Below the pieces are notes generated by a model. The model made no database searches. It saw only the letters and a list, made by a program, of their open reading frames with translations, and was not told where the DNA came from. The translations under genes were made by a program, and so were the position numbers. 64,000 nt of DNA from Eubacteriales bacterium (GTDB taxonomy: Bacteria > Bacillota > Clostridia > Oscillospirales > CAG-272): NCBI GenBank assembly GCA_045585835.1, contig JAZMZG010000017.1, forward strand, positions 152,315 through 216,314, read 5' to 3'. Each line of letters starts with the position of its first letter. Within the stretch, counting starts at the first letter, position 1. This document shows positions 7,826 through 62,851 of the stretch, piece by piece.

Positions 7826-7827
7826 AT

Positions 7828-8436
7828 CTATTCCTTAAATTTTAAATAAGCCTCATACGCTTCTTTTGCCATTTTTTCGTGCAGCTCGTCGCCATCCGTC
7901 TTTGCCCTCTCACCGAACATCGCCGAATATATCGTACAAGCCGCAAGATACGAGCCTTTTTTTGTCGCATGCTCGTCGTCGGCTCTATATAGCTCTATAT
8001 CGGGTTCTTTATCGAAAAAGCTCCACCACGCCTCGCCTGCCGGTGCGAATGAAAAGCCCGTTTCTTTTATGAATTCAAGATATCCCTTCGTAGCTTCGCT
8101 CTGCTGTCCTCTTTCGTGTCTTCTCGGCCACGGCATATACATAACACCCTTTGCACCGCTTTGCATAACGAAGTGTGCAAGCTTCATTCCCTCACACATA
8201 AGGCTATCTTTTATAAAGGGATTCGCTCTGTGCTGAAGCACAACGTAATCGTATTTGCCGTATTTGATATTGAAAGGAGCTTCAGCGTCGTTTAAATGAT
8301 TTTCAAGGCCAACGCCTCCGTGAGCAAGCATTACGGGAAATACGTCTTTGCCGTTCCACTTACATATTCTCTTGAAAATATCGGGCATATCGTTATAGTA
8401 AACGTGGCTGTTGCCCACAAACAAAACCTTTATCAT
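7828..8436 (-). CDS. SGNH/GDSL-like hydrolase family protein
   Basis: Block I VLFVGNSH near the N-terminus and block V-like DDEHATKKG near the C-terminus. The SD for obg lies in its last codons. Confidence 0.55.
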   Translation of the reverse strand: MIKVLFVGNSHVYYNDMPDIFKRICKWNGKDVFPVMLAHGGVGLENHLNDAEAPFNIKYGKYDYVVLQHRANPFIKDSLMCEGMKLAHFVMQSGAKGVMYMPWPRRHERGQQSEATKGYLEFIKETGFSFAPAGEAWWSFFDKEPDIELYRADDEHATKKGSYLAACTIYSAMFGERAKTDGDELHEKMAKEAYEAYLKFKE

Positions 8437-9493: not shown

Positions 9494-10771
9494 ATGAATA
9501 CTGTTATTCGCTCAGCAGAAGTGCTTTTAAAAGAAAACGGCGTATACACCGTCAAAAAATGCGATATCGGTATCGAAAACGATACGATACGCCACGTGGG
9601 GAATATCCCCCAAGACTTTGCCGCAGATAACATCATTAGCGGTGAGGGAAAGTTTGCCGTTCCCTCTTTAATTAACTGTCACACTCACGCTTATATGAGC
9701 GTTTTCAGAAATCTTGCGGACGACCTTCCTTTCGATAAATGGCTTTTCGAGTCAATTATGCCCCGTGAGGACAGAATGACATGCGAAGGCGCAAAAGCGG
9801 GTGCGATGCTCTCGCTTCTCGAGATGATAAAAAGCGGCACAGGATGTTTTGTCGATATGCATATGTTCCCAAGAGCAAGTGCCGAGGCGGCGTCGGAACT
9901 TGGTATGCGTGCAGTTATATCGAGAGGACTCGCGGGCGAAATCGGTACGGACGGCGGTGCGGAAAGAAGATTCAGAGAGGCAGTCGAGGAGATAAGCGAG
10001 TTTTCCGAAAACCCGCTTCTTACGTTTATGATAGCGCCGCACGCAATTTACACCTGCGGTGAAAAGACGCTTCGCTACAGTGCAGAGCTTGCCGAGAAAC
10101 TCGGACTCGGAATAAATATCCATCTTTCCGAAACACAGCACGAATTCGATTCGTGTATGGCAGAGCACGGTATGACACCCGTAGAATACTGCGCAAGTCT
10201 CGGACTTTTGACCGATAAAACTCTTGCCGCTCACCTTGTAAAGCTCACGGATAAAGATATCGAAATACTTGCACAAAATGGCGTGAGCATGGCGTCTTGC
10301 CCGATAAGCAATATGAAGCTCGCCAACGGCTTTGCACCCGTAGAAAAGCTCATGGCGGCAGGCGTAAACATCACACTCGGCACCGATAGCTGTGCAAGTA
10401 ATAATACGGTAAACCTATTCCCCGATATGAGAGCCTACGCTCTTGTACACAAGGGCAAGCTTTCCGATGCGCTTTCCGTAAGCGCCGCAGATACGGTCGA
10501 TGCGGTCACGGTAAATGCGGCAAAGGCACTCGGACTTAATACGGGCGCTATCGAAGAAGGCAAGCTTGCCGACATAACGCTTTACTCGCTTTCCGAGCCC
10601 ACGCTATGCCCCCGTAACAATCTTCTCTCTGCCCTCGCATACAGCATGGGCGGATACGAGGCGGATACGCTTATCATCGGCGGAAAACTAATAATGCAAA
10701 ACAAAGAGATAATCACCGCAGACGTTGAAAAAATATATTACGATGCCCAAAAGGTCATCGACATTTTATAG
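9494..10771 (+). CDS. mtaD: 5'-methylthioadenosine/S-adenosylhomocysteine deaminase (amidohydrolase superfamily)
   Basis: 425 aa. HxH metal motif INCHTHAYMS, HLSE, and late TDS...N residues. Overall MtaD/DadD-like layout. Confidence 0.8.
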   Translation: MNTVIRSAEVLLKENGVYTVKKCDIGIENDTIRHVGNIPQDFAADNIISGEGKFAVPSLINCHTHAYMSVFRNLADDLPFDKWLFESIMPREDRMTCEGAKAGAMLSLLEMIKSGTGCFVDMHMFPRASAEAASELGMRAVISRGLAGEIGTDGGAERRFREAVEEISEFSENPLLTFMIAPHAIYTCGEKTLRYSAELAEKLGLGINIHLSETQHEFDSCMAEHGMTPVEYCASLGLLTDKTLAAHLVKLTDKDIEILAQNGVSMASCPISNMKLANGFAPVEKLMAAGVNITLGTDSCASNNTVNLFPDMRAYALVHKGKLSDALSVSAADTVDAVTVNAAKALGLNTGAIEEGKLADITLYSLSEPTLCPRNNLLSALAYSMGGYEADTLIIGGKLIMQNKEIITADVEKIYYDAQKVIDIL

Positions 10772-10779
10772 GAGGAGCT

Positions 10780-12015
10780 ATGAGCTACGAGATAAAGGAT
10801 ATAAACCTTTGGGAAGAAGGAAAAAGGAAAATCGACTGGGTGCGCGCACATATGGACCTTTTGCGCACGATAGAGGAAGAATTCATAAAGACAAAGCCCT
10901 TTGCGGGACTTCGCGTCGCTTTGTCTATCCACCTTGAAGCAAAGACCGCATATCTTTGCAAGGTGCTTGCTTCGGGCGGTGCCGAAATGTACGTTACCGG
11001 CAGTAATCCCCTTTCAACACAGGACGATATTGCCGCCGCCTTGGTGCACGACGGCCTTAACGTATATGCTTGGCACGGCGTGACCGCTGAGGAATACGAG
11101 CATCACACGAGAATGGTTATCGAAGCCGCTCCCAACTTCATTATTGACGACGGCGGTGACCTTGTAAACCTTATCCATACAGAGTATCCCCATCTTCTTG
11201 AAAACGTCATAGGCGGCTGTGAGGAGACCACTACAGGCATTCTCCGCCTTGTGAGCATGGCAAAGAGGGGCGAGCTTAAATTCCCGATGGCTTTGGTAAA
11301 CAACGCAAAGTGCAAATATCTTTTCGATAACCGTTACGGCACGGGTCAGTCCGTTTGGAACGGTATAAACAGAGCAACGAATCTCATCGTTGCGGGCAAA
11401 AACGTAGTAGTTGCCGGTTACGGTTGGTGCGGTAAGGGTGTTGCGATGAGAGCAAAAGGACTCGGCGCATCAGTTATCGTGACCGAGATAGACGCAGTTA
11501 AGGCTATGGAAGCCGTAATGGACGGCTTTAAGGTTATGCCTATGAACGAAGCGGCGAAGATAGGCGATATTTTCGTTACCGTTACGGGCTGCTGTGACGT
11601 TATCACGAAGGAAGCCTTCGAAGTAATGAAGGAAGGCGCTATAATGTGTAACGCAGGTCACTTCGACGTCGAGGTTGACGTAAAGACGCTTCGCGAGATG
11701 GCGAAATCAAGCTTCCTTGCAAGAGAAAATATTATGGGCTATACCCTTGAAAACGGCAGAACGCTTTACGTTATCGCAGAGGGCAGACTCGTAAACCTCG
11801 CCGCAGGCGACGGACATCCTGCGGAAATTATGGATATGAGCTTTGCTATCCAAGCACTCTCCGCACTCTATATCGTACAGCACAGAAACGAGCTTTGCGA
11901 TATGCTTATAACCGTACCCGAAGAGGTAGACGAAAAGGTTGCACGTATGAAGCTTAAATTCTGGAACGTTGAAATAGACGCTCTCACGGATAAGCAGATC
12001 GAATATTTGGGATAA
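10780..12015 (+). CDS. ahcY: Adenosylhomocysteinase (short archaeal/Thermotoga-type, 411 aa)
   Basis: MSYEIKDINLWEEGKRKIDW..., NAD-binding GYGWCGKG, HFDVEVD. Starts 8 nt after mtaD. Confidence 0.9.
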   Translation: MSYEIKDINLWEEGKRKIDWVRAHMDLLRTIEEEFIKTKPFAGLRVALSIHLEAKTAYLCKVLASGGAEMYVTGSNPLSTQDDIAAALVHDGLNVYAWHGVTAEEYEHHTRMVIEAAPNFIIDDGGDLVNLIHTEYPHLLENVIGGCEETTTGILRLVSMAKRGELKFPMALVNNAKCKYLFDNRYGTGQSVWNGINRATNLIVAGKNVVVAGYGWCGKGVAMRAKGLGASVIVTEIDAVKAMEAVMDGFKVMPMNEAAKIGDIFVTVTGCCDVITKEAFEVMKEGAIMCNAGHFDVEVDVKTLREMAKSSFLARENIMGYTLENGRTLYVIAEGRLVNLAAGDGHPAEIMDMSFAIQALSALYIVQHRNELCDMLITVPEEVDEKVARMKLKFWNVEIDALTDKQIEYLG

Positions 12016-12057: not shown

Positions 12058-13197
12058 TTTCTGTTCTTCCTTTTGCTCTTTCTTTGCGGCTTCGCCCTTT
12101 TTCATTTTGCCGATAACCTCAACGTCATCACGGCTTATAAGCTTTATTACGGTATCGTTTTTGTCCGTAAGTCTAACCTTGATAAGTCCCGCAAGCGGGC
12201 TTGTGTCGATTACGACACCCTCGTCGCCGTCCTTACAGCGCACTATGGAATCCACGGGAGGCGTTTTCTTTATCTCTTCCTCGTATACGTCGTTTTCGTA
12301 TTTAAGGCAACATATAAGTCTTCCGCAGGTACCGGATATCTTTGCCGAGTTGAGCGAAAGATTTTGGTCTTTTGCCATCTTTATCGAAACCTGTGCAAAA
12401 TCCGAAAGGAAGCTGTTACAGCAGAACACTCTGCCGCATATACCAAGTCCCCCAAGAAGCTTTGCTTCGTCTCTTATTCCTATCTGACGAAGCTCGATTC
12501 TCGTTTTAAATACTGTTGCAAGGTCCTTTACGAGCTCTCTGAAATCCACTCTGCCGTCTGCTGTAAAGTAGAATATGAGCTTATTGTTATCGAAGGTATA
12601 TTCAACGTCCACAAGCTTCATTTCGAGCTTATGCTCGGCTATCTTCTTTTCGCAAATTTCAAGCGCTTCCTTTTCAAGACGGAGGTTATTTTCGTGGCGT
12701 CTTGTATCGTCTGCACTCGCAAGGCGTACTATCGGCTTTAAGGGCTTTACTATCGTTTTTTCATCAACGAAGCTGTTGGGAACTGCGACAGTGCTGTACT
12801 CAACACCTCTTGCCGTTTCGACGATAACTGCCTGTCCCTTTTGTACCTGTATGTCGCCGGGTGCAAAATAATATATCTTGCCGACATCTTTAAAGCGTAC
12901 GCCGATTATTTCAACCTTTTGCGACTCTTCAACCTCTTGTCCGCCAAATCCTCCCTGATAGCCGACCTTGGCATCCTTATCGGTTTCATAGGGCTCGAAG
13001 GTCTGGCTTTCCGACATGACCTCGCGGCTTTCGACCTCAAGCTCGCTTTCGCCCAAAACCTCGGGAGCGGGCGTATTATTTAACGGTTTATCGGCATCTT
13101 TTGCCTTTGCATTTTGCTTATGATGAAAGTTTTTTCTTCTGTTGCGGTGATATTTGAAGCCTTTGCCGCCGCCTTTTTTATCTTTATTTTCTTCCAT
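12055..13197 (-). CDS. ricT: PSP1-domain protein RicT/YaaT with ~100-aa low-complexity N-terminal extension
   Basis: PSP1 core starts at VEIIGVRFKDVGKIYYF. Cys clusters CGRVFCC and CGRLICCLKYE. Sits in the conserved position downstream of holB. Confidence 0.85.
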   Translation of the reverse strand: MEENKDKKGGGKGFKYHRNRRKNFHHKQNAKAKDADKPLNNTPAPEVLGESELEVESREVMSESQTFEPYETDKDAKVGYQGGFGGQEVEESQKVEIIGVRFKDVGKIYYFAPGDIQVQKGQAVIVETARGVEYSTVAVPNSFVDEKTIVKPLKPIVRLASADDTRRHENNLRLEKEALEICEKKIAEHKLEMKLVDVEYTFDNNKLIFYFTADGRVDFRELVKDLATVFKTRIELRQIGIRDEAKLLGGLGICGRVFCCNSFLSDFAQVSIKMAKDQNLSLNSAKISGTCGRLICCLKYENDVYEEEIKKTPPVDSIVRCKDGDEGVVIDTSPLAGLIKVRLTDKNDTVIKLISRDDVEVIGKMKKGEAAKKEQKEEQK

Positions 13198-13244
13198 AAA
13201 TGTTTCCTCTCGTTTGTTTGTGCGATGTAAGGTGTGTATTTATA

Positions 13245-14174
13245 TTATACCGCCTGAATGAATCTTAATACGGAAAGCTGAACGTTTCCGTTTCGGTAAA
13301 GCTCGTTTTTTTCTTTTTCAAGAAGCTCGTATAAGGAAATTGCCTTTGCAAAGCTTATCCTTCTTGCTATCTCCGCCCTCTGTTCTTCACTTATAAAATA
13401 CTGCGGATGCGATACACCATAGCTTCTTGCGGCAACGTCGCGCATAGCAAGCTGAAGCTCGGAGTAGAGCGCGATAAGGCTTTCTTTACCCGTCGCCTTC
13501 AAAGAAAGAAGCGATGCGGCGTGCGCCTTTGACTCGGTCGCAAGCGCCTTGAGTATCTCATAAGACGTATCTCTAAGCGAAAATGCGCCCTTTTTCTCCA
13601 TTATGTTGTATGCGGCGCCGACGTATCCTTCAGAAAGTCTTGCTGCTTTTCTTGCAGTATCCTCGTCGCATTTGTATTTTTTTATAAGGTGTAACATAAG
13701 CTTTTCTGTGGGAATACTCTCCATCGGAAAGCTCATACATCTTGAGCGCACCGTTGAAAGCAAGGTGGCGTCAGTAGTTGCAAGTAAAAAGAACTTCGCT
13801 CTTCCCGAAGGCTCTTCAAGCGTTTTCAAAAGAGCGTTTTGCGCTTCCTTGCCAAGCGTCTCGGCATCGTCGATGACATATACCCTAAACGGTGCCTCGT
13901 TCGGCGCAAGCTCTATCCCTTTTAAAAATTCTCTGACCGCTTTGACCTTTATCGTTGCGTCCTGCGGGTCTTTCGATAGAATCTGCAAATCGGGATGTGA
14001 AAGCGTATCGAGCTTTTTACAAGCACTGCAGAACCCGCAAGGTCTTTTTTCTCCGCTTTCACAAAACATTTCCTTGATAACGTTCATAACAAAAGTCGTT
14101 TTTCCGCTTCCATCGGGGCCGATCAAAAGATATGCGTGAGAAAGGCTGCCGCTTCGTATCTTCTCGGAAAACAT
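13245..14174 (-). CDS. holB: DNA polymerase III subunit delta'
   Basis: GPDGSGKTT Walker A, Zn module CGFCSACKK, VIDDAE box, SRC motif (TVRSRC). Confidence 0.9.
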   Translation of the reverse strand: MFSEKIRSGSLSHAYLLIGPDGSGKTTFVMNVIKEMFCESGEKRPCGFCSACKKLDTLSHPDLQILSKDPQDATIKVKAVREFLKGIELAPNEAPFRVYVIDDAETLGKEAQNALLKTLEEPSGRAKFFLLATTDATLLSTVRSRCMSFPMESIPTEKLMLHLIKKYKCDEDTARKAARLSEGYVGAAYNIMEKKGAFSLRDTSYEILKALATESKAHAASLLSLKATGKESLIALYSELQLAMRDVAARSYGVSHPQYFISEEQRAEIARRISFAKAISLYELLEKEKNELYRNGNVQLSVLRFIQAV

Positions 14175-53632: not shown

Positions 53633-53643
53633 ACTTTCAAAAA

Positions 53644-53676
53644 AACAGAATGCTCAAAAAGCATCCTGTTTTTTTA
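53644..53676 (+). terminator. Rho-independent terminator
   Basis: AACAGAATGC-n7-GCATCCTGTT (one mismatch) followed by TTTTT. Confidence 0.7.
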
Positions 53677-53727: not shown

Positions 53728-53756
53728 TTGTAATAAGTTTCGAATTGTGATACAAT
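53728..53756 (+). promoter_or_regulatory. Sigma-A promoter of the hydrogenase operon, overlapped by a 15-bp palindrome
   Basis: TTGTAA (53728-53733), 17 nt, TACAAT (53751-53756). The palindrome AATTGT-gat-ACAATT spans 53743-53757. Confidence 0.55.
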
Positions 53757-53818
53757 TTAGGGTGAAATATAGCGCACTCCGAAGAGGAGCACCGCTGCAA
53801 TATAAGGAGGAAATTTTT

Positions 53819-54319
53819 ATGCAGAAGAAAATCAGCAAACTTCCCTTCAAGAGCACTCCCGAGCAAGATGCTGCTCTTGATGCAATCATCGCAAAATACA
53901 ACGATGATAAAGCAAACCTCATCACCGTTATGCAGGAAGCGCAGGATATTTACGGATATCTTCCCGTTGAGGTTCAAACAAAAATAGCAGACGGTATGGA
54001 CATTCCCCTTGAAAAAGTGTTTGGCGTGTCGACCTTCTATGCACAGTTCTCGCTTTCACAAAAAGGCGCTCACCACGTTGCTATCTGTCTTGGTACAGCT
54101 TGCTACGTAAAGGGCTCCGGAAAGCTCATGGAAGAATTTGAAAAGCAGCTCGGCATCAAGTCGGGTGAGATCTCCGACGACGGACAGTTCAGCCTTGATG
54201 CAACCCGTTGCATCGGCGCTTGCGGACTTGCTCCCGTTTTGACGGTCGGCGAAGACGTATATGGCAGACTTGATGAAACAATGGTTGCCGATATCGTTGC
54301 AAAATATAAAAACGCATGA
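53819..54319 (+). CDS. hydC: NuoE-like [2Fe-2S] subunit of multimeric [FeFe] hydrogenase (HydC-type)
   Basis: ATG 53819 follows AAGGAGGAAA. Thioredoxin-like 2Fe-2S Cys pattern: CLGTAC...CIGACGLAP. Confidence 0.85.
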   Translation: MQKKISKLPFKSTPEQDAALDAIIAKYNDDKANLITVMQEAQDIYGYLPVEVQTKIADGMDIPLEKVFGVSTFYAQFSLSQKGAHHVAICLGTACYVKGSGKLMEEFEKQLGIKSGEISDDGQFSLDATRCIGACGLAPVLTVGEDVYGRLDETMVADIVAKYKNA

Positions 54320-54669
54320 AAATAAAAGAGATTCAAGAGCTTCTTTCCGCCGAACTTCTATGCGGGGAGGAATCTGTACAAAACGACGTATTTTCTGCTT
54401 GCTGCAGTGATATGATGAGCGACGTTCTTGCATACGTTAAGGATCAAGGCGTTCTTCTTACGGGACTTGTAAATCCCCAAGTCATCCGTACTGCAAATAT
54501 GATGGATATACTTTGCATCGTATTCGTTAGAAATAAGCTCCCTTCCGACGAAATGATATCTTTGGCAAAGGAAAGCGGAATCGTACTTATGAAAACGGCT
54601 TTGAGAGCTTACGAGGCATGCGGAATACTCTATGACTCGGGGCTTGGAAACGATAAGTGCCATGGCTGA
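54316..54669 (+). CDS. DRTGG-domain protein (copy 1)
   Basis: ATGA overlap with hydC. 117 aa with a DRTGG-like core (VLLTGLVNPQVIRTANMMDILCIVFVRNK). Confidence 0.6.
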   Translation: MKIKEIQELLSAELLCGEESVQNDVFSACCSDMMSDVLAYVKDQGVLLTGLVNPQVIRTANMMDILCIVFVRNKLPSDEMISLAKESGIVLMKTALRAYEACGILYDSGLGNDKCHG

Positions 54670-55084
54670 ACCCATTAAATTTCATTTCGACGTTTACGGC
54701 GGCGACTTTTCCGCAGCGGGCGGAGCTTCCGTTGTGGTAAAGAAAAAGCTTCGCCAACTTGGATTTTCTCCCGATATAATTCGTAAGGTGTCGGTTGCGA
54801 TGTATGAAGGCGAGATAAATATGGTCATTCACGCAAACGGCGGTACGGCAGACGTTGAAGTCAGAGATGATTGTATTATGATCGTCCTTGCCGATAAGGG
54901 CCCCGGTATTCCCAACGTAGAGCTTGCGTTTACGGAAGGATATTCCACCGCAAGAGACGATATACGGGCGCTTGGATTCGGTGCCGGAATGGGTCTTCCC
55001 AATATGAAAAAATATACCGATGAGATGACCATTGATACGGTAATCGGAGTCGGCACTACGATAACGATGAAAGTGAATCTTTAG
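54662..55084 (+). CDS. GHKL ATPase, SpoIIAB/RsbW-like Ser-kinase-type (copy 1)
   Basis: ATG 54662 overlaps the upstream gene by 8 nt. N-box-like EGEINMVIHA, G1 DKGPGI, G2 GFGAGMGLPN. 140 aa with no sensor or DHp domain. Confidence 0.7.
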   Translation: MAEPIKFHFDVYGGDFSAAGGASVVVKKKLRQLGFSPDIIRKVSVAMYEGEINMVIHANGGTADVEVRDDCIMIVLADKGPGIPNVELAFTEGYSTARDDIRALGFGAGMGLPNMKKYTDEMTIDTVIGVGTTITMKVNL

Positions 55085-55110
55085 AAAATACGCTTAAAGG
55101 AGGTATATCT

Positions 55111-56418
55111 ATGAATGTCAAAAGACAGCACTCCGTCCGACTTGATTCGGATAAATGCAAGGGATGTACCACCTGCCTTAAAAGATGTCCGACTGAGGCA
55201 ATACGTATCCGCGACGGTAAAGCAATTATCAATGCGGACAGATGTATTGACTGCGGTGAGTGCATAAAGCTATGTCCCTATCAGGCAAAAAAAGCAACTC
55301 ACGATGACCTTTCGGCACTTGATGGCTTTAAGTACAAGGTTGCTCTGCCTGCGCCGTCTCTCTACGGTCAGTTTAATAATCTCGATAATATCGGATATAT
55401 TATAAAAGGCCTGCGTGATATAGGCTTTGACGACGTTTTCGAAGTCGCCTGCGCCGCAGAGCTTGTAACTGCTTATACGAGAATGTATATCACACGTTAC
55501 AATGTCAAAAAGCCTGTAATCAGCTCTGCCTGCCCCACTATCTTAAGGCTTATAAGCACAAATTATCCTTTTCTATGTGATAACATAATGCCACTGCTGC
55601 CACCCGTTGACATAGCGGCAATCTTGGCAAGAGAAAAGGTAAAAAGCGAGCATCCCGAGCTTTCGGACGACGACATCGGTATTGCGTTTATTTCGCCTTG
55701 TCCTGCGAAAGTCAGCTATATCAAGAGCAAAGAAAAGCCTCTTATAGACGTCACGTTATCCGTAAAGGACGTTTACTTTAAGCTGCTTGACAAGATGAAG
55801 GTCGATACCGAGCCCGAAGAAACGACGGATTCGGGACTTATAGGCATCGGTTGGGCAACGACGGGAGGAGAATCCTCCGCAGTCTTCAACGAAAGATACC
55901 TTGCGGCAGACGGAATAGAAAACTGTATAAGGGTTTTGGAGCAGATAGACAACGAGGACATAAAAGACCTTGACTTTGTTGAGCTTAACGCTTGTAACGG
56001 CGGCTGTGTCGGCGGTGCTATGACTATTGCAAACCCCTTTATCGCACAAACGAGGCTTAAAAGCCTAAAACGCTATTTGCCCGTAACGGCAAACAGACCC
56101 TCGGGTAATATCATTCCCGATAAAATTTTCAATCACGATACTATAGCATATACCCCAAGCAATCTTCTTTCCGACGACAGAGAAGAGGCAAGAAGAATGA
56201 TGGGAGATATAGAAAAGATCTCGGAGAAACTTCCCGGTATAGACTGCGGCTCCTGCGGTGCCCCGACTTGTATGGCATTTGCGGAGGATATAGTTAAGGG
56301 CGAGACCTGCGCCGATGAATGCACGGTGCTTATGAAGTCTCTTTTCCACGAATATCTCAAGGAGCACGACAAAAATATAAGCGGTGATGATTTTATAGAC
56401 GGCGGAGGTAACATATAA
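55111..56418 (+). CDS. HydS-like putative sensory [FeFe]-hydrogenase homolog (degenerate H-cluster motifs, extra C-terminal Fe-S motif)
   Basis: AAAGGAGG SD. Two ferredoxin motifs (CKGCTTCLKRCP and CIDCGECIKLCP). SSACP (55522-55536), SPCPAK, ELNACNGGCVGG. C-terminal CGSCGAPTC-x12-CADEC. Confidence 0.75.
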   Translation: MNVKRQHSVRLDSDKCKGCTTCLKRCPTEAIRIRDGKAIINADRCIDCGECIKLCPYQAKKATHDDLSALDGFKYKVALPAPSLYGQFNNLDNIGYIIKGLRDIGFDDVFEVACAAELVTAYTRMYITRYNVKKPVISSACPTILRLISTNYPFLCDNIMPLLPPVDIAAILAREKVKSEHPELSDDDIGIAFISPCPAKVSYIKSKEKPLIDVTLSVKDVYFKLLDKMKVDTEPEETTDSGLIGIGWATTGGESSAVFNERYLAADGIENCIRVLEQIDNEDIKDLDFVELNACNGGCVGGAMTIANPFIAQTRLKSLKRYLPVTANRPSGNIIPDKIFNHDTIAYTPSNLLSDDREEARRMMGDIEKISEKLPGIDCGSCGAPTCMAFAEDIVKGETCADECTVLMKSLFHEYLKEHDKNISGDDFIDGGGNI

Positions 56419-56744
56419 TGAAGCTGTCCGAGCTTATAACAAAACTTTCACTTGCTGAAATTTCACCTTTTGCGGAGGATATATGTCCCACGGGCGTATA
56501 CGCAGGAGACCTTTTAAGCCGTGCCATGAGCCGTATAGAAAGCGGAGATCTTTGGATAACGATAATGTCAAATACCAACGTTATTGCGGTTGCAAGTCTT
56601 ACCGAGGCTTCGATGGTTATTTTGGCGGAGGGCGTTGAGCTTATCCCCGAAGCCGCAAATACTGCACGGGAGCAAAACATAGGAGTTTACTCCTCACAAG
56701 AAACCGTATACGAGCTTTGTAAAAAAATCGGAGAGCTTCTTTGA
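56418..56744 (+). CDS. DRTGG-domain protein (copy 2)
   Basis: TAATG overlap with the upstream gene and GGAGG 9 nt upstream. 108 aa (GDLWITIMSNTNVIAVASLTEASMVILAEG). Confidence 0.6.
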   Translation: MKLSELITKLSLAEISPFAEDICPTGVYAGDLLSRAMSRIESGDLWITIMSNTNVIAVASLTEASMVILAEGVELIPEAANTAREQNIGVYSSQETVYELCKKIGELL

Positions 56745-56745
56745 T

Positions 56746-57477
56746 ATGGGAAAGTATTACGTAGACTTACATATACATTCCTGTCTCTCCCCTTGCAGCG
56801 ACGATGATATGACGCCCGCAAATATAGCGGGAATGGCGTCCCTAAACGGACTGACTTTGGTTGCACTGACCGACCATAACAGCACAAAAAACTGTCCCGC
56901 CTTCTTTAAACAGGCAAAGCGGCTTGGGATAGTTCCCATAGCGGGAATGGAGCTTACCACCTCGGAAGATATACACGCCGTATGTCTTTTCAGGACTTTG
57001 GAAGGGGCAATGCAATTCGGAAGCTTCTTGGAAACGAAGAAAGTGAAAATAAAAAATGATGCGTCCGTCTTCGGCAATCAGTTTATAATGGACGAAAACG
57101 ATGAGATTGCGGAAGTGGAAGAAAATATCCTTTGGAACGCATCGGAGCTTTCCTTGGAAGAAGCTTTTCACGAGGTCAAAAAATACGGCGGTGTGTGCTA
57201 TCCCGCACATATCGACAGAACTTCAAACGGAGCGGTTGCGATTCTCGGCGGATTTCCCGAAGAACCGAAGTTTACTTCTTACGAATTGAACTTTGCTGAG
57301 AAAAACGAAGAATATCAAGAAAAATTCCCTATATTAAGATCCTTGCAAATGATAGCATCATCAGACGCACATCATCTATGGGATATAAGCGAGGGTGGAT
57401 TTTTGTTAGAGCTTGATGACGAACCGTATTCATCTCAAAAAGTGGCAGATAGCTTAATTGAGCTTCTCGGAGGATAA
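56746..57477 (+). CDS. PHP-domain phosphoesterase
   Basis: YVDLHIHSCLSPCS, ALTDHNS, ELT..EDIH, PAHIDR, SSDAHHLWDI: the PHP metal-ligand series. Confidence 0.8.
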   Translation: MGKYYVDLHIHSCLSPCSDDDMTPANIAGMASLNGLTLVALTDHNSTKNCPAFFKQAKRLGIVPIAGMELTTSEDIHAVCLFRTLEGAMQFGSFLETKKVKIKNDASVFGNQFIMDENDEIAEVEENILWNASELSLEEAFHEVKKYGGVCYPAHIDRTSNGAVAILGGFPEEPKFTSYELNFAEKNEEYQEKFPILRSLQMIASSDAHHLWDISEGGFLLELDDEPYSSQKVADSLIELLGG

Positions 57478-57481
57478 GGTC

Positions 57482-58042
57482 TTGGAAGATTTTTCACTCT
57501 ACGTTTTGGATATAACGATGAATTCCGTAAGGGCGGGAGCAAGTAATATTGACATCACCCTAAAGCAAGACGACGAATTTCTTTACGTCACCATCAAGGA
57601 CGACGGTTGCGGTATGACGAAAGAGCAATTAAATAAGCTTGAAAATCCTTTTTTCACAACACGCAAAACGAGAAAGGTCGGGCTTGGAATCCCCTTCTTT
57701 ACGCAGCTTGCCAAAATGACAGACGGATACGTCAAAATAGCTTCAAAGCACGAAAGCGAATATGAAGACCACGGAACTGTGATCGAAGGTAAGTTCGGTT
57801 ATAAGCATATCGACTTCATACCGATAGGAAATATGCCGCAAACCGTTGTAACGCTTATACAAGGCTCACCTGACGTGGATTTCACCTTCACTCACAGCTA
57901 TAAGGATAAAAAAGTCTTTTTGGCGACCTCGCAGCTCCGTGAAATTTTGGGAAGCGAAATATCTCTTGCAAGCATCGAGATACTTAATTGGATCTCGAGC
58001 AGCCTAAAAGAGCAATATGAAGAGCTAAACATTAAAAAATAA
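57482..58042 (+). CDS. GHKL ATPase-domain protein (copy 2)
   Basis: Preferred start is TTG 57482, 8 nt after GGAGG (57469-57473). The alternative TTG 57458 overlaps the PHP gene. LDITMNSVRAG (N box), DDGCGM (G1), GLGIPF (G2). Confidence 0.7.
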   Translation: MEDFSLYVLDITMNSVRAGASNIDITLKQDDEFLYVTIKDDGCGMTKEQLNKLENPFFTTRKTRKVGLGIPFFTQLAKMTDGYVKIASKHESEYEDHGTVIEGKFGYKHIDFIPIGNMPQTVVTLIQGSPDVDFTFTHSYKDKKVFLATSQLREILGSEISLASIEILNWISSSLKEQYEELNIKK

Positions 58043-58077
58043 AAAATATATTAACATAATCAGAAAGGAAGCACACA

Positions 58078-58449
58078 ATGAAATCACTTGAAGAACTTAT
58101 GGCCATCAAAGCCAAAATGCAGGACAAGGTTTCTTTGCGTACGTCAAACGGAAACATCCGCATCGTAGTAGGAATGGCAACCTGCGGAATTGCAGCAGGC
58201 GCACGTCCTGTTCTCTCCGCCTTTGTTGAAGGCGTAAGCGAAGAGGGCCTCGCAGACGAGGTTACCGTAACGCAGACCGGTTGTATCGGCATCTGCCAAT
58301 ACGAGCCCGTTGTAGAGGTTTACGAAAAGGACAAGGAAAAGGTCACCTACGTTAAGATGACTGCCGAAAAAGCAAAAGAAGTTGTACAAAAGCACATCAA
58401 AGGCGGCAATCCCGTTAAAGAATACACCATTGGTGCTGCAAAAATCTAA
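58078..58449 (+). CDS. Thioredoxin-like [2Fe-2S] ferredoxin (HydD-type small subunit)
   Basis: 123 aa. Cys pattern MATCGIAAG...GCIGICQYEP. Confidence 0.75.
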   Translation: MKSLEELMAIKAKMQDKVSLRTSNGNIRIVVGMATCGIAAGARPVLSAFVEGVSEEGLADEVTVTQTGCIGICQYEPVVEVYEKDKEKVTYVKMTAEKAKEVVQKHIKGGNPVKEYTIGAAKI

Positions 58450-58471
58450 ATAAACAGGAGGAACAGAACGC

Positions 58472-60274
58472 ATGATTCGTTCACACATACTTATTTGCGG
58501 CGGTACCGGATGTACCTCTTCCGGCAGTGTTGCACTTGGAGAAAAGTTGGCAAACGAGCTTGTTGCCAAGGGCTTGGAAAATGAAATTAAAATCGTAAAA
58601 ACGGGTTGCTTCGGTCTTTGTGCCTTAGGTCCTGTCATGATCGTTTATCCCGAGGGAACCTTCTATAGCAGAGTTACTCCCGAGGATATTCCCGAAATCG
58701 TAGAAGAGCATCTTCTCAAGGGACGTGTAGTTGAGCGTCTTGTTTACAACGATACCGATGCTAAGGAAATGGCTGACAAGGCTTATGCTACGTCACTTTC
58801 CGAAACAGCATTCTATAAGAAGCAGAAGAGAGTATCTCTTCGTAACTGCGGTGTTATCAACCCCGAAAGCATTGATGAATACATAGCTATGGACGGTTAC
58901 TTTGCTCTTGCAAAGTGCCTTAAAGAGATGACACCCGATGACGTTATCAAAACGATATCCGATTCGGGTCTTCGCGGCAGAGGCGGCGGCGGATTCCCCA
59001 CAGGCAAAAAGTGGAGCTTCGCTAAGGCTTCCGCAGGCGACAAGAAATACGTCGTTTGTAACGCAGACGAGGGCGACCCCGGTGCATTTATGGACCGTAG
59101 CGTTCTCGAGGGCGACCCCCACTGTATCATCGAAGCTATGGCTATTGCAGGTTACGCAATAGGTGCTGACGAGGGCTACGTATACGTTCGTGCAGAGTAT
59201 CCCATCGCCGTTACACGTTTGAAGCTCGCTATTATGCAGGCAGAGGAATACGGCCTTTTAGGCGACGATATCCTCGGCACAGGCTTTAACTTCCACCTCA
59301 AAGTCCGTCTTGGCGCAGGCGCTTTCGTTTGCGGAGAAGAGACCGCTCTTATGACTTCTATCGAAGGTAACAGAGGTGAACCCCGTCCCCGTCCTCCCTT
59401 CCCCGCAGTTAAGGGCCTTTTCGGCAAGCCCACCGTTGAAAATAACGTTGAGACATTTGCTAACGTACCTCAGATAATCTTAAACGGCGCTGATTGGTTT
59501 AAGACTATGGGCATCGAGCAGTCCACCGGTACTAAGGTATTTGCTCTTGGCGGTAAGATCAAGAACACCGGTCTTGTTGAAGTTCCCATGGGACTTACTC
59601 TCCGTGAGATAATCGAAGACATCGGCGGCGGCTGCCCCAACGGCAAGAAATTCAAGGCCGTTCAAACGGGTGGTCCTTCCGGCGGTTGTATCCCCGCAAG
59701 TCTGCTCGATACCTCGGTTGACTTTGACAATCTCACAGCTCTCGGCTGTATGATGGGTTCAGGCGGTATGATCGTTATGGACGAGGATAACTGTATGGTC
59801 GATATGGCTAAGTTCTTCCTCGAATTCACCGTTGACGAATCTTGCGGTAAGTGCACGCCCTGCCGTATAGGTCTTTACAGACTTCTTGAAATGCTTGAGA
59901 AGATCACAAGCGGAAACGGCGAGCTTAAAGATATCGACGAGCTTGAAGAAATGTGCGAATACATTAAGGCTAACTCCCTCTGCGGACTCGGACAGACAGC
60001 TCCTAACCCCGTACTTGCAACACTCAAGTTCTTCCGTGATGAGTACATCGCTCACGTTGTTGATAAGAAGTGCCCTGCAGGCGTATGTAAGGGACTTCTC
60101 ACCTACGTTATCGATCCCGTACTCTGCAAGGGTTGTACAAAGTGCGCTCGTCAGTGCCCCGTTGGTGCAATTAGCGGCACGGTTAAGAATCCTCACGTAA
60201 TTGATACCAAGAAGTGCATTAAGTGCGGTGCTTGCGAACCCAGCTGCCCGTTCAAAGCTATATCTAAGAAATAA
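58472..60274 (+). CDS. hydB: NuoF-like flavoprotein subunit of [FeFe] hydrogenase (HydB-type)
   Basis: N-terminal 2Fe-2S (CGGTGC...GCFGLC). GLRGRGGGGFPTGKKW (FMN), NADEGDPGAF (NAD), ESCGKCTPCR (N3 cluster). C-terminal 2x CxxCxxCxxxCP. Confidence 0.9.
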   Translation: MIRSHILICGGTGCTSSGSVALGEKLANELVAKGLENEIKIVKTGCFGLCALGPVMIVYPEGTFYSRVTPEDIPEIVEEHLLKGRVVERLVYNDTDAKEMADKAYATSLSETAFYKKQKRVSLRNCGVINPESIDEYIAMDGYFALAKCLKEMTPDDVIKTISDSGLRGRGGGGFPTGKKWSFAKASAGDKKYVVCNADEGDPGAFMDRSVLEGDPHCIIEAMAIAGYAIGADEGYVYVRAEYPIAVTRLKLAIMQAEEYGLLGDDILGTGFNFHLKVRLGAGAFVCGEETALMTSIEGNRGEPRPRPPFPAVKGLFGKPTVENNVETFANVPQIILNGADWFKTMGIEQSTGTKVFALGGKIKNTGLVEVPMGLTLREIIEDIGGGCPNGKKFKAVQTGGPSGGCIPASLLDTSVDFDNLTALGCMMGSGGMIVMDEDNCMVDMAKFFLEFTVDESCGKCTPCRIGLYRLLEMLEKITSGNGELKDIDELEEMCEYIKANSLCGLGQTAPNPVLATLKFFRDEYIAHVVDKKCPAGVCKGLLTYVIDPVLCKGCTKCARQCPVGAISGTVKNPHVIDTKKCIKCGACEPSCPFKAISKK

Positions 60275-60291
60275 GAAAGGAGTACGCTATA

Positions 60292-62037
60292 ATGGAAATG
60301 GTTAATGTAATTGTAGACGGTATATCGGTCAGCGTACCCGCAGGATCAACTATCCTTGAGGCTGCCCGTGCGGCAGGCGTGGAAATTCCCACCCTCTGCT
60401 ATATGAAAGAAAAGAACGAGATCGGCGCTTGCCGTATCTGCGTTGTTGAAGCAACAAAAACAAGAGGTCTTGTTACCGCTTGCGTATATCCCGTAGTTGA
60501 CGGAATGGAGATCAAGACGAATACTCCCAAGATCCAAAAGGCTCGTAAGACGACTCTTGAGCTCATTCTCTCCACTCACGATATGAAGTGCCTTTCTTGC
60601 GCACGTTCAACCAACTGCGAGCTTCAGAAGCTCTGCTATGAGTACGGCGTAGACTCTCAACACTTTGAGGGCAAAAAGGCAACTCACCCCCTCGACCTCT
60701 CCGCACCTCACCTCGTAAGAGATAACAACAAATGTATCCTCTGCAGACGTTGCATCGCAGTATGTAACGAGCAGTTTGTATCCGTAATCGGTGCAAACAA
60801 CAGAGGTATCGATACAACTGTCGGTTCTCCCTTCCATATGAACCTCAACAGCACTCCCTGCATCTCCTGCGGTCAGTGTACGGCTGTTTGCCCCACGGCA
60901 GCTCTTATGGAAAAGGACGACACGGACAAGATCTACGAAGCTCTTGCAGATCCCAAAAAGCACGTTGTTGTTCAGACGGCTCCTTCCGTACGTGCAACTC
61001 TCGGCGAATGCTTCGATATGCCTATCGGCACGAACGTAGAAGGTAAGATGGTTTCCGCTCTCAAGAGACTTGGCTTTGCTAAAGTATTTGATACGGACTT
61101 TGCCGCTGACGTTACTATCGTTGAAGAAGCAACCGAGCTTGTACAAAGAGTTCAGAACAAGGGCGTTCTTCCTATGATCACCTCTTGCTCACCCGGTTGG
61201 GTCAAGTTTGCGGAATTCTACTATCCCGAGCTTCTTCCCCATCTCTCCACCTGCAAGTCTCCTCAACAGATGGCAGGCGCTATCATCAAGACTTATTACG
61301 CTGAAAAAGAAGGCATCGACCCCAAGGATATCGTTTCCGTATCGGTAATGCCTTGCACAGCTAAAAAGTTTGAGATAGGCAGAGACGACGAGAGCGCAGC
61401 AGGTGTTCCCGACGTTGATATCGCTATCACTACAAGAGAGCTTGGCAGAATGATAAAGCGTGCCGGAATTAAGTTTACGGAGCTTCCCGATGCAGAATTT
61501 GATTCTCCTCTCGGTGAAGATACCGGTGCTGCAGTTATATTCGGTGCTACGGGCGGTGTTATGGAAGCGGCGCTTCGTACCGCTAACGATTGGCTCACGG
61601 GCAAGGATAATACAGAAATCGAATTTAAGGAAGTCAGAGGCACGGCAGGTCTTAAAGAAGCAAGCTACAACATCGCAGGCCTTAATATTAAGGTTGCAGT
61701 TGCAAGCGGTGCCGCTGCAGCTAACGAGGTTATGAAGAAGATCGCTTCCGGTGAAGCTGATTGGACCTTCGTTGAGATCATGGGTTGCCCCGGCGGTTGC
61801 GTAAACGGTGGCGGACAGCCTATCCAGCCTCAATACGTACGTGATACGGTTGACCTCAAGGCAGTAAGAGCAAAGGCTCTCTACGACCAAGACCAAGCAA
61901 TGACCCTTAGAAAGAGCCACGAGTCCCCCGTTGTTAAGAAGCTCTATAGCGAATACTACGATGGCTTCGGCGGCCACAAGGCTCACCACGATTTGCACAC
62001 AAGCTACGTTGCAAGAAAGAAGTTTGAAGATAGATAA
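60292..62037 (+). CDS. hydA: [FeFe] hydrogenase catalytic subunit (HydA, multimeric/bifurcating-type architecture)
   Basis: N-terminal 2Fe-2S, a His-ligated cluster (HDMKCLSCARSTNCELQ) and 2x 4Fe-4S. H-domain motifs TSCSPGW (61180-61200), MPCTAKKFE and EIMGCPGGCVNGGGQP. Confidence 0.9.
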   Translation: MEMVNVIVDGISVSVPAGSTILEAARAAGVEIPTLCYMKEKNEIGACRICVVEATKTRGLVTACVYPVVDGMEIKTNTPKIQKARKTTLELILSTHDMKCLSCARSTNCELQKLCYEYGVDSQHFEGKKATHPLDLSAPHLVRDNNKCILCRRCIAVCNEQFVSVIGANNRGIDTTVGSPFHMNLNSTPCISCGQCTAVCPTAALMEKDDTDKIYEALADPKKHVVVQTAPSVRATLGECFDMPIGTNVEGKMVSALKRLGFAKVFDTDFAADVTIVEEATELVQRVQNKGVLPMITSCSPGWVKFAEFYYPELLPHLSTCKSPQQMAGAIIKTYYAEKEGIDPKDIVSVSVMPCTAKKFEIGRDDESAAGVPDVDIAITTRELGRMIKRAGIKFTELPDAEFDSPLGEDTGAAVIFGATGGVMEAALRTANDWLTGKDNTEIEFKEVRGTAGLKEASYNIAGLNIKVAVASGAAAANEVMKKIASGEADWTFVEIMGCPGGCVNGGGQPIQPQYVRDTVDLKAVRAKALYDQDQAMTLRKSHESPVVKKLYSEYYDGFGGHKAHHDLHTSYVARKKFEDR

Positions 62038-62056: not shown

Positions 62057-62088
62057 GGGAGGCGGCACGAAGCCGCCTCCCTGTTTTA
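62057..62088 (+). terminator. Hydrogenase operon terminator
   Basis: GGGAGGCGGC-acgaa-GCCGCCTCCC followed by TGTTTT. Confidence 0.85.
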
Positions 62089-62111: not shown

Positions 62112-62525
62112 ATGCTGATAGTAAGACCTGTAAAAGATAAAAAATTTCAAGAGGAACTTTGCAAGATTGCAAATGTGCCATATGATGCGGCGGCTTTTGC
62201 ATATCTTGCGGCTAATACCGACGATATAGGCGAAAGCTATTCAAGCTATATTGGGCTTATTCAATTTGATATTGATGCACAGGGTGCAGAGCTTCTTTCG
62301 GTTAGTATGATGCCCAATGTTGACGATATGGAAGCGATGATAATAATGGGTAGAAGCCTTATGTGCTTCTTGTACCGCGATCTTCACTTAAAGACGCTTC
62401 GTGCTTCTAATAAAGTTGACGGTAAATACTGCAAAGCATTCGGGCTTCGAGAAAAGGACGGTATTTTCAGCATTGATTTGGAGGATTTTTACGCATCTCC
62501 CTGCAAATACAATAATTTGGAATAA
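62112..62525 (+). CDS. Hypothetical cytoplasmic protein (137 aa)
   Basis: AAGGAAAAAATC precedes ATG 62112. No recognisable motif and no signal peptide. Confidence 0.5.
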   Translation: MLIVRPVKDKKFQEELCKIANVPYDAAAFAYLAANTDDIGESYSSYIGLIQFDIDAQGAELLSVSMMPNVDDMEAMIIMGRSLMCFLYRDLHLKTLRASNKVDGKYCKAFGLREKDGIFSIDLEDFYASPCKYNNLE

Positions 62526-62549: not shown

Positions 62550-62578
62550 TTGACAAAGCTTTCCTTTTGCGGTATAAT
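62550..62578 (+). promoter_or_regulatory. Perfect-consensus sigma-A promoter
   Basis: TTGACA (62550-62555), 17 nt, TATAAT (62573-62578). Confidence 0.7.
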
Positions 62579-62611
62579 GGCGACACCCACCTAAAATATT
62601 CGGAGGAAAAA

Positions 62612-62851
62612 ATGTTATCAACGGGAATTGTTCGCAGAATAGATGCACTCGGCAGAGTCGTTATCCCTAAAGAGCTTAGAGAGAGCTTGGATATCAACGA
62701 AGCGCCTATAGAGATATTCGTAGACGCTGACTCTATAGTGCTTAAAAAATATCAGCATAAGTGCCTTTTCTGCGGTTCAAACGAGACGGTATTTGAATAC
62801 AAGGAAAAGCTTATATGCAAAGCATGCCTTGAAGAATTGAAGAGTAAATAG
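62612..62851 (+). CDS. AbrB/SpoVT-family DNA-binding protein with C-terminal CxxC...CxxC zinc ribbon
   Basis: ATG 62612 follows GGAGGAAAAA. STGIVRRIDALGRVVIPKELRESL is the swapped-hairpin AbrB motif. C-terminus CLFCGS-x14-CKAC. Confidence 0.8.
   Translation: MLSTGIVRRIDALGRVVIPKELRESLDINEAPIEIFVDADSIVLKKYQHKCLFCGSNETVFEYKEKLICKACLEELKSK

Follow-up and report, generated by a model that had tools for sequence, protein, structure and literature searches.

We analyzed a 64,000-nucleotide stretch of the genome of an Eubacteriales bacterium (Oscillospirales, CAG-272; contig JAZMZG010000017.1, positions 152,315 to 216,314), hereafter called the window. In it, the gene for a putative H2-sensing [FeFe] hydrogenase, HydS, and genes for five small proteins lie inside the operon of an electron-bifurcating hydrogenase, HydABC(D). 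The small proteins are two DRTGG-domain proteins (DRTGG1 and DRTGG2), two GHKL-type ATPases (GHKL1 and GHKL2) and a PHP-family phosphoesterase (PHP). By its sequence HydS is a Group D (M2e) protein, the gene set around it is conserved in nearly all close relatives, and DRTGG1 and GHKL1 occur elsewhere as a single fused protein. We lean towards a general model in which the set is an H2-sensing module placed on HydABC(D), with DRTGG1 and GHKL1 as the proximal partners of HydS.

The sensor-type hydrogenase and its operon

HydS carries two Fer4-family matches within residues 9-59, the cysteines of which (C16, C19, C22, C26, C45, C48, C51 and C55) are invariant in homologs. They are followed by an H-domain (Fe_hyd_lg_C, 113 bits) with the H-cluster cysteines C141, C197, C295 and C299, invariant as well. 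The motifs of this domain are SSACP, with Ala at the position of the proton-relay Cys (C299 of CpI), SPCPAK, with Ser at the position of Met353, and ELNACNGGCVGG; together with the C-terminal CGSCGAPTC...C they keep their cysteines throughout the homologs. This last motif has the spacing Cx2Cx4Cx16C (C379, C382, C387 and C404, all invariant; PF04060, 47 bits), and the protein ends 31 residues past C404. The profile search gave no PAS match, and no kinase or DNA-binding domain is fused to the protein.

Group D (M2e) hydrogenases are defined by two N-terminal [4Fe-4S] motifs, an H-domain lacking the relay Cys, the change of Met353 to Ser or Thr, a C-terminal Cx2Cx4Cx16C motif and no PAS domain (PMC8163306; PMC13104023). 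Since all these features are present in the window protein, and since it shares 45% identity over 409 aa (E = 7e-118) with TamHydS from Thermoanaerobacter mathranii (Land et al. 2019/2020; Schumann et al. 2026; query sequence from the supplement of PMC6984386), sequence evidence places it in Group D with TamHydS and not in Group C with T. maritima HydS. The first-pass annotation of this DNA had recognized a relay-Cys-less sensor-type [FeFe] hydrogenase without fused PAS, kinase or DNA-binding domain, in agreement with both motif and profile evidence, but T. maritima HydS, which it cited, belongs to the other group. TamHydS and the window protein share domain order, length (435 aa), the changes of the relay Cys to Ala and of Met353 to Ser, and the residue numbers of Cx2Cx4Cx16C. 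They differ at position 497 (CpI numbering), which is Asn in the window protein and Leu in TamHydS. The family is very large, with at least 8000 proteins matched.

Within this comparison, H-cluster binding, slow turnover and an H2-dependent signal are established for TamHydS only (PMC8163306; PMC13104023). TamHydS shows high H2 affinity, low turnover and a change of secondary structure on H2 exposure (PMC8163306; PMC13104023). It is catalytically active in both directions (PMC8163306), and its C-terminal cluster is not reduced by H2 (2026 paper, PMC13104023). By analogy, the window HydS would bind H2 at a normal H-cluster and turn over slowly because its proton relay is disabled, and in this way it would report the H2 level.

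The operon consists of ten open reading frames (ORFs) of the same strand, from 53819 to 62037 in the ORF list of the window. Protein identities come from Pfam and NCBIfam profile searches of the window proteins:

53728 to 53756, + strand: promoter-like site, TTGTAA-17-TACAAT with TG upstream (9/12 match), plausible
53819 to 54319, + strand: hydC, NuoE-like thioredoxin-like [2Fe-2S] subunit of the bifurcating hydrogenase (PF01257, 164 bits)
54316 to 54669, + strand: DRTGG1, 117 aa, stand-alone DRTGG-domain protein (PF07085, 26.5 bits)
54662 to 55084, + strand: GHKL1, 140 aa, SpoIIAB/RsbW-like GHKL ATPase or kinase (HATPase_c_2, HATPase_c)
55111 to 56418, + strand: HydS, 435 aa, Group D (M2e) putative H2-sensing [FeFe] hydrogenase (Fer4, Fe_hyd_lg_C, PF04060)
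56418 to 56744, + strand: DRTGG2, 108 aa, divergent paralog of DRTGG1 (PF07085, 23.7 bits, below cut-off; hhalign)
56746 to 57477, + strand: PHP-family metal-dependent phosphoesterase, 243 aa (PF02811, 42 bits)
57482 to 58042, + strand: GHKL2, ATPase of 186 aa with corrected TTG start (HATPase_c, HATPase_c_3)
58078 to 58449, + strand: hydD, small thioredoxin-like [2Fe-2S] ferredoxin subunit (PF01257, 26.5 bits; NF041612)
58472 to 60274, + strand: hydB, NuoF-like flavin/NADH-binding subunit (Complex1_51K, NADH_4Fe-4S; TIGR01959, 500 bits)
60292 to 62037, + strand: hydA, catalytic Group A [FeFe] hydrogenase of the NADH-dependent/bifurcating type (NF040763, 873.7 bits; Fe_hyd_lg_C, 326 bits)
62057 to 62088, + strand: intrinsic terminator closing the operon (10-bp stem, 9 G-C pairs)

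The score of HydA against NF040763 ('NADH-dependent [FeFe] hydrogenase') exceeds the cut-off of 765 bits. A Group A HydA with adjoining NuoF-like and NuoE-like genes in one operon is the set of an NADH-dependent, electron-bifurcating HydABC. Every domain call of the first-pass annotation holds in the profile searches; DRTGG2 stays below the cut-off and is secured by profile-profile alignment with hhalign.

Most genes of the set are tightly joined. As read from the sequence, the NuoE-like gene and DRTGG1 share an ATGA overlap at 54316, and DRTGG1 and GHKL1 share the 8-nt overlap ATGGCTGA, which sets the GHKL1 start at 54662; GHKL1 orthologs are all of about 140 aa. HydS starts with ATG at 55111, preceded by AAGGAGG. 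HydS and DRTGG2 overlap in TAATG (56416-56420), while DRTGG2 and PHP are separated by 1 nt (TGA-T-ATG, 56742-56748, PHP starting at 56746). A GGAGG lies at 57469-57473, within the 3' end of the PHP gene. GHKL2 most likely starts with TTG at 57482 (186 aa) rather than at 57458, because the consensus of the orthologs opens at this codon and a database protein with 99% identity has 186 aa. The six genes, junctions and motifs first described were otherwise confirmed from the sequence.

Of the two operon borders first proposed, the strong terminator is real, with its hairpin at 62057-62081, and the promoter-like site exists but belongs to a class of matches at chance level. It lies directly after the terminator hairpin of the upstream gene (53638-53676), in the sole sizeable intergenic gap before the operon; 22 such matches were observed in the region against 17 expected, and for this reason we regard the promoter as no more than plausible. 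The presumed 5' untranslated region contains a 7-bp G+C-rich hairpin, GCACTCCGAAGAGGAGTGC, at 53774-53792, downstream of the promoter-like site and ahead of the NuoE start; when operon and leader were scanned against Rfam, neither this hairpin nor any other part gave a match.

Conservation and order of the gene set

A genome scan returned 591 relatives, and the best 80 were analyzed. They belong to metagenome-assembled genomes (MAGs) of gut and rumen Oscillospirales, with HydS identities of 55-93%. Synteny was counted by script, and a gene was counted only where the contig reaches far enough. Under this rule DRTGG1 is present in 70/70 loci, GHKL1 in 74/74, DRTGG2 in 77/78, PHP in 74/75 and GHKL2 in 70/71, so that each accessory gene is found in at least 98% of the related loci reached by the contig. 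The core hydrogenase genes behave alike (NuoE 67/67, the small ferredoxin Fdx 66/67, NuoF 51/52, HydA 46/47). The sensor and its accessory genes stand together in 79 of the 80 closest loci, which bears out the co-occurrence of the six genes, for which the first-pass annotation had proposed a neighborhood census. Junctions overlap in 56 of 72 loci between DRTGG1 and GHKL1, in 59 of 76 between DRTGG2 and PHP and in 50 of 79 between HydS and DRTGG2. With such presence and mostly overlapping junctions, the arrangement is far from chance.

With TamHydS as query, the set was also found in distant lineages. In Thermoanaerobacter, Caldicellulosiruptor bescii, Coprothermobacter platensis, Thermoanaerobacterium and Caldicoprobacter, the order is that of locus L076: DRTGG1-GHKL1-HydS-DRTGG2-PHP, then NuoE-GHKL2-Fdx-NuoF-HydA. 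The same gene set occurs in two further lineages, and throughout it is kept despite changes in gene order. The gap between the five-gene module and NuoE is 110-170 nt in the five named genera, except for about 320 nt in Caldicoprobacter. The position of NuoE relative to the module differs from that of the window in L076 and in L081-L089. The Thermoanaerobacter locus has, like the window, DRTGG, GHKL, DRTGG, PHP and GHKL neighbors beside HydABC(D), but there the module precedes NuoE with an intergenic gap, whereas in the window NuoE comes first and the module is embedded in a single transcription unit. Ancestrally, DRTGG-GHKL-HydS-DRTGG-PHP stood before NuoE-GHKL-Fdx-NuoF-HydA; the window carries a permuted form of this layout. 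In the window lineage NuoE moved to the front, and therefore the whole set came under one promoter.

This comparison also changes how the set is to be divided. The first-pass annotation had described a six-gene cassette. All six genes are indeed conserved together, but GHKL2 lies within the core block NuoE-GHKL2-Fdx-NuoF-HydA in every lineage outside that of the window, so the cassette is a five-gene sensor module plus GHKL2. The module can be smaller still: in a Peptococcaceae locus without a nearby hydrogenase, DRTGG1-GHKL1-HydS is all that is left (L061 is a comparable exception), and for this reason we take the trio as the minimal unit. In this Peptococcaceae MAG (L088) the trio adjoins a CheW gene (5496-5951), with a PAS-GGDEF gene nearby (9571-11025); these might represent alternative outputs.

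The cassette is not new as an object. It is widespread, and it is present and annotated in the model organisms of HydS and HydABC studies; a specialist would not be surprised by it, because it is visible in any annotated genome of Thermoanaerobacter or C. thermocellum. Carere et al. list TTE0887, Cthe_0335, Csac_1857, Athe_1292, Cphy_3798 and Teth39_1463, each four genes from a trimeric hydrogenase. What is new here are the fusions, the minimal trio, the Asp-x-x-Ser motif, the fold of GHKL2 and the kinship of PHP.

Some loci deviate in ways worth recording. In L087, heterodisulfide-reductase-like genes (a CCG-domain protein and an FAD/Fer4 protein) and a FlpD/MvhD-like gene flank the cassette (1-2164; 10412-10849) and the order is PHP-GHKL2-NuoE, which suggests that the sensor module can serve another type of hydrogenase complex. 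In L024, labeled Coriobacteriaceae, the GHKL2 frame (12541-13578) is about 120 aa longer at its C-terminus and the surrounding gaps are larger. A gene for a SPOR-domain protein (263-301 aa) stands immediately upstream of DRTGG1 in L081 (6412-7203), L084 (6405-7199) and L089 (5287-6192), that is, in Thermoanaerobacter, Thermoanaerobacterium and Caldicoprobacter. One 389-aa database protein (P0379) joins SPOR and DRTGG1 and may be functional or an artefact of gene calling. The 'AraC regulator' reported beside TamHydS (Land et al.) was not found; the extra upstream gene in Thermoanaerobacter encodes this SPOR-domain protein. The history of HydA (60292-62037 in the window; L001-L080) is discordant with the rest of the operon: HydA scores about 760-830 bits where HydS is 70-74% identical to that of the window, and about 1050-1090 bits where HydS is 57-60% identical. 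These values suggest that, in an otherwise conserved operon, the gene of the catalytic subunit was replaced or recombined.

The accessory proteins

DRTGG1 is the most conserved accessory protein (26.5 bits against a PF07085 cut-off of 25.2). Its motif reads S-D32-M-M-S35-D; across 67 diverse relatives (38-65% identity) no column other than D32 and S35 is invariant. The AF2 model (pLDDT 93.9) puts D32 in a loop that follows a strand, and S35 at the N-terminal end of the helix that comes next. DRTGG2 scores 23.7 bits, just below the same cut-off, and is a paralog of DRTGG1 over its full length (hhalign probability 98.5%, E = 2.5e-15); its motif is G-D-L-L-S, and the D-x-x-S is kept in distant lineages too. 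The fold of the DRTGG1 model matches 2ioj (AF1212; TM 0.83), the DRTGG domain of CBS-pyrophosphatase and the N-domain of HPr kinase, and no STAS structure was among the matches of this fold search.

Gene fusions point to one contact within the module. A deep DRTGG1 search in a 50%-identity representative library (E <= 0.001) gave 1405 clusters, nearly all of stand-alone proteins of about 117 aa. Among them are two independent in-frame fusions of DRTGG1 to GHKL1, with linkers of 20-30 aa. Each stands in a full cassette, immediately 5' of HydS, and one was recovered on 10 contigs from independent samples. Read as Rosetta-stone evidence, these fusions suggest a DRTGG1-GHKL1 complex in which DRTGG1 is likely the direct partner of GHKL1. 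Other long DRTGG1 matches are joined to fragments of ArgJ, peptidase M3 or DrrA but contain only a truncated DRTGG part, and for this reason we consider them chimeras of assembly or gene calling.

GHKL1 has the motifs expected of an active ATP-binding protein of the SpoIIAB type: an E-x3-N N-box, the G1 box DKGPGI, EGYSTA and the G2 box GFGAGMGLPN. Distant lineages show no change in the catalytic Glu-x3-Asn, in DxGPGI of G1 or in the G2 motif, and the protein aligns to SpoIIAB structures of the PDB (E = 3e-6), in line with the SpoIIAB/RsbW likeness proposed at first. Its best NCBIfam match is anti-sigma F factor (TIGR01925, 50.8 bits against a cut-off of 135), and RsbW scores 25 bits against 145.

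GHKL2 is a different kind of protein. It matches HATPase_c (48 bits) and HATPase_c_3, with D-x3-N, DDGCGM and GLGIP motifs, and has no SpoIIAB-type signature. Over its whole length, the AF2 model (pLDDT 89) gives Foldseek matches to PMS2/MutL, GyrB/ParE and the N-domains of GRP94/Hsp90 (E ~1e-6, TM ~0.5). Only about 105 columns of the model align with histidine-kinase catalytic domains, and the C-terminal half extends the ATPase fold. The profile search of the 186 aa showed only HATPase_c and HATPase_c_3, with no DHp or His-phosphoacceptor domain. The lack of a DHp domain and the partial alignment speak against the usual annotation as a sensor histidine kinase. GHKL2 may be a GHL-type ATPase: its modeled Bergerat fold is extended and resembles theirs, but it has no transducer domain, and an invariant Asp takes the place of the usual catalytic Glu. 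The two GHKL proteins, placed in two DRTGG+GHKL pairs by the first-pass annotation, are not equivalent.

The PHP protein scores 42.4 bits against PF02811 (cut-off 26.4), and its metal ligands H9, H11, D43, H44, E69, H77, H155, D207 and H209 are invariant in 30 sequences that include distant lineages. C17, in an 'SPC' just after the HxH motif, is universal. Within residues 13-17 (56782-56798, HSCLSPCS) a C-x3-C is invariant in Oscillospirales relatives; in distant lineages the pair fails and the second Cys alone is universal. So close to the active site of a PHP protein such a Cys is unusual; it might bind metal or act as a redox switch. When the family profile was run against the PDB, it matched pAp phosphatase, EndoQ, TM0559, RNase AM and PolC, and matched no CpsB/YwqE-type protein phosphatase. 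The PHP phosphoesterase proposed at first therefore stands as regards its domain and intact metal ligands, but its detectable kin are nucleotide and nucleic-acid phosphoesterases rather than PHP protein phosphatases. PHP is also the only phosphoesterase of the set, and no PP2C was found in any of about 90 loci.

These relationships can be read without any protein phosphorylation. The DRTGG proteins would bind a nucleotide or metabolite, the GHKL proteins would act as ATP-driven clamps, PHP would hydrolyze a nucleotide-type effector, and H2, read through HydS, would be combined with the energy or redox state of the cell to set HydABC activity. In DRTGG1 the invariant D-x-x-S and a T-G motif sit on neighboring loops along the C-terminal edge of the parallel sheet, where folds of this kind usually bind their ligand, and the fold matches are regulatory domains of CBS-pyrophosphatase and HPr kinase. 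The nearest solved relatives of PHP (pAp phosphatase, RNase AM and EndoQ, to the exclusion of CpsB/YwqE) and the dimerizing ATPases nearest to GHKL2 (MutL, GyrB, Hsp90) point the same way, and a DRTGG-GHKL fusion is equally expected for a sensor domain joined to an ATPase. However, the closest relatives of GHKL1 are all SpoIIAB/RsbW-type protein Ser kinases and it keeps their catalytic Glu and Asn, no stand-alone DRTGG protein has a known ligand, and the PHP similarities are weak (E ~1e-6) and driven by universal PHP motifs. We consider a non-covalent switch of this kind unlikely.

A proposed switch and its output

From the gene content, conservation, folds, motifs and fusions described above we infer the following contacts, phosphotransfer and output. 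Having no output domain of its own, HydS would signal through the small proteins encoded with it. The core sensor unit would consist of DRTGG1, GHKL1 and HydS, with the SpoIIAB-like, ATP-binding GHKL1 in complex with DRTGG1. In the favored version, an H2-dependent conformation of HydS would decide whether GHKL1 phosphorylates Ser35 of DRTGG1 with ATP or holds DRTGG1; this would be a partner switch made of non-STAS and non-PP2C parts. DRTGG2, PHP and the MutL/Hsp90-like GHKL2 would form a second tier, returning the switch to its starting state and connecting it with the hydrogenase gene block: PHP would reverse the phosphorylation of Ser35, and GHKL2, with DRTGG2, would link the state of the switch to the hydrogenase.

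The triad of kinase, substrate and phosphatase put forward by the first-pass annotation stays plausible as a hypothesis. It is consistent with the fusion of DRTGG1 to GHKL1, with an invariant Ser that stands at the start of a helix and with intact catalytic motifs. The complete proposal would amount to a new class of phospho-relay with GHKL1 as kinase, a DRTGG Ser in place of STAS, PHP in place of PP2C, HydS as input and, as output, post-translational control of a bifurcating hydrogenase through GHKL2. We put it forward tentatively, as rather unlikely to hold in all its parts. Several points weigh against it. The D-x-x-S occupies the position of the motif that gives DRTGG its name, so that its conservation may reflect ligand binding or structure and not phosphorylation. 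Elsewhere DRTGG domains are regulatory or oligomerization modules (CBS-pyrophosphatase, N-domain of HPr kinase) and not known phospho-acceptors. GHKL1 falls far below the SpoIIAB/RsbW equivalog cut-offs and Arg20 of SpoIIAB is not conserved in it, while GHKL2, as modeled, resembles a GHL-type ATPase and not a protein kinase. PHP enzymes are not known to dephosphorylate Ser or Thr, and the relatives detected act on nucleotides or nucleic acids. The sensory role itself is called putative for Group D in a 2022 review, a 2024 survey lists the group as functionally undefined, and the 2026 TamHydS paper (PMC13104023) states that the interaction partner or partners are unknown and that finding them is critical. 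These three sources agree with the earlier statement that the signaling logic is unresolved in the literature.

Co-evolution gives a further, weak indication. In a mirror-tree test based on residual correlations with a leave-two-out background, HydS and GHKL2 reached r = 0.44, equal to the positive control NuoE-NuoF. Lower values were obtained for PHP-GHKL2 (0.36), HydS-Fdx (HydD; 0.35), HydS-GHKL1 (0.33) and DRTGG1-GHKL1 (0.28); DRTGG2-PHP gave 0.03, and GHKL2-NuoE and GHKL2-NuoF were about 0. A first run had been rejected because of the discordant history of HydA, and the test was redone with the background given here. The values suggest weakly that GHKL2 tracks the sensor rather than the diaphorase subunits; the evidence is weak because a shared recombination history can mimic such a signal, which also counts against the proposed switch.

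The same correlations bear on the view that there is no sensor at all. HydS would then serve the complex as a subunit for slow catalysis or for electron input, while assembly, repair or quality control of HydABC(D) or its clusters would fall to the accessory proteins, for example a Hsp90/MutL-like ATPase chaperone working with a phosphoesterase. The covariation of HydS with the small ferredoxin HydD agrees with this, as do the place of GHKL2 between structural subunits, its chaperone- or clamp-like GHL fold, the two-way catalysis of TamHydS and the listing of Group D as functionally undefined. Nevertheless, the lost proton-transfer pathway, low turnover and high H2 affinity fit a sensor, the trio DRTGG1-GHKL1-HydS is found away from any hydrogenase operon, and GHKL1 is of the signaling (SpoIIAB) type. 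To our knowledge, moreover, bifurcating HydABC enzymes of organisms lacking the cassette assemble with HydE, HydF and HydG alone. We regard this view as very unlikely.

As for the output of the proposed switch, we consider control at the protein level most likely, acting on HydABC(D) or on a target encoded at another place, because no transcription factor is conserved nearby. The first-pass annotation had noted that the operon encodes no sigma factor or transcription factor, and none is conserved in the flanks either. A census of the flanks showed no conserved regulator, the commonest neighbor being a Mrp/NBP35-type ATPase (9 of about 49 loci). Across about 90 loci, neither the cassette nor its surroundings contain a conserved sigma factor or DNA-binding protein. 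The Mrp/NBP35 (ApbC)-type protein is an Fe-S carrier ATPase with an N-terminal Cys-rich stretch, encoded upstream of NuoE in L028 (7525-8367) and in 8 other loci. In L085 and L086 a gene for a Rex-type redox repressor (7372-8004; Put_DNA-bind_N and CoA_binding) overlaps the start of the DRTGG1-GHKL1 fusion by 4 nt; no other DNA-binding protein was seen in direct coupling with the cassette.

A transcriptional form of partner switching would make GHKL1 an anti-sigma factor or anti-regulator of a distant target and DRTGG1 its antagonist, with HydS choosing the partner, and would result in H2-dependent transcription of the hyd and fermentation genes. It draws on the best family matches of GHKL1, which are anti-sigma F and anti-sigma B factors, on the ancestral gap of 110-170 nt before NuoE-...-HydA, which fits a separately regulated target operon, and on the Rex-type gene overlapping the module start in one lineage; moreover, in R. 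albus and Thermoanaerobacterium the HydS systems of Group C have an effect on transcription. It is opposed by the lack of a conserved regulator in those loci and by the window itself, where the module lies inside the hydrogenase operon and shares a promoter with its presumed target. Arg20 of SpoIIAB, not conserved in GHKL1, is needed for sigma F binding, and a Rex operator search of the window gave no match near the promoter and nothing above chance. Taken together, this makes a transcriptional output distinctly improbable.

Several known systems are close to the proposed switch. Group C (M2f) includes T. maritima HydS, R. albus HydS and Thermoanaerobacterium HfsB with its phosphatase HfsC. 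Like the window, these systems have a relay-less H-domain with N-terminal clusters and a C-terminal [4Fe-4S] motif, a catalytic hydrogenase as neighbor and kinase- or phosphatase-type genes alongside, and H2 sensing has been proposed for them. Unlike the window, they have a fused PAS domain, PP2C-type Ser phosphatases and conventional kinases, whereas the window protein lacks PAS and its companions are DRTGG proteins, a SpoIIAB-like GHKL, PHP and a GHL-like ATPase. In the [NiFe] system HoxBC-HoxJ-HoxA of Ralstonia/Cupriavidus, a slow hydrogenase paralog reports H2 to an ATP-using signaling protein, and this protein in turn controls the energy-conserving hydrogenase, as in the logic proposed here. 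However, HoxBC has another metal site and belongs to an unrelated family. HoxJ, a histidine kinase that contains PAS, works with a known response regulator, and the window has no such two-component pair. The parallel to Group C HydS and to HoxBC-HoxJ is an analogy in logic only.

A further resemblance is to SpoIIAA/SpoIIAB/SpoIIE and RsbV/RsbW/RsbU. As in these modules, a single-domain SpoIIAB-like GHKL with intact catalytic motifs follows, translationally coupled, a small alpha/beta protein whose invariant Ser stands at the start of a helix, and the genes include one for a metal-dependent phosphoesterase. The order of a small alpha/beta protein and then a SpoIIAB-like kinase mirrors spoIIAA-spoIIAB. 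The window differs in having DRTGG instead of STAS, PHP instead of PP2C, no sigma factor target and scores below the family cut-offs. The set would thus work like a partner-switching module yet falls outside that family.

Full-text searches of the literature to 2026 gave no paper that describes the accessory genes; Calusinska 2010 and Poudel 2016, which lay outside the search, may do so. Nor did the full-text search give anything relevant that links DRTGG or partner switching (RsbW, SpoIIAB) with [FeFe] hydrogenase. Group D HydS is the putative sensor with detailed spectroscopy, and the five small proteins co-inherited with HydS across several bacterial orders, the genus of TamHydS included, are candidate partners for it. 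The core is narrowed to DRTGG1, GHKL1 and HydS, the fusions support one contact, and Ser35 offers a testable residue. In fermenting bacteria of the gut, the rumen and biofuel production, the H2 economy is determined by electron-bifurcating hydrogenases. In Caldanaerobacter, which carries the cassette, NADH-dependent hydrogenase activity responds to H2 pressure, according to the passage of PMC3561251 that reports Soboh et al. If the phospho-switch proved true, stand-alone DRTGG proteins and a PHP subfamily would gain their first functions, and yields of H2 and ethanol, or the flux of H2 in the rumen, could be steered through it.

Downstream of the hydrogenase terminator, an ORF of 137 aa (62112-62525) has no family match. 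It is followed at 62550-62851 by a sigma-70 promoter of full consensus (TTGACA-17-TATAAT, 12/12) and the gene of a 94-aa protein with an AbrB/MazE fold and a zinc-ribbon-like Cys motif at its C-terminus, just 3' of the terminator.

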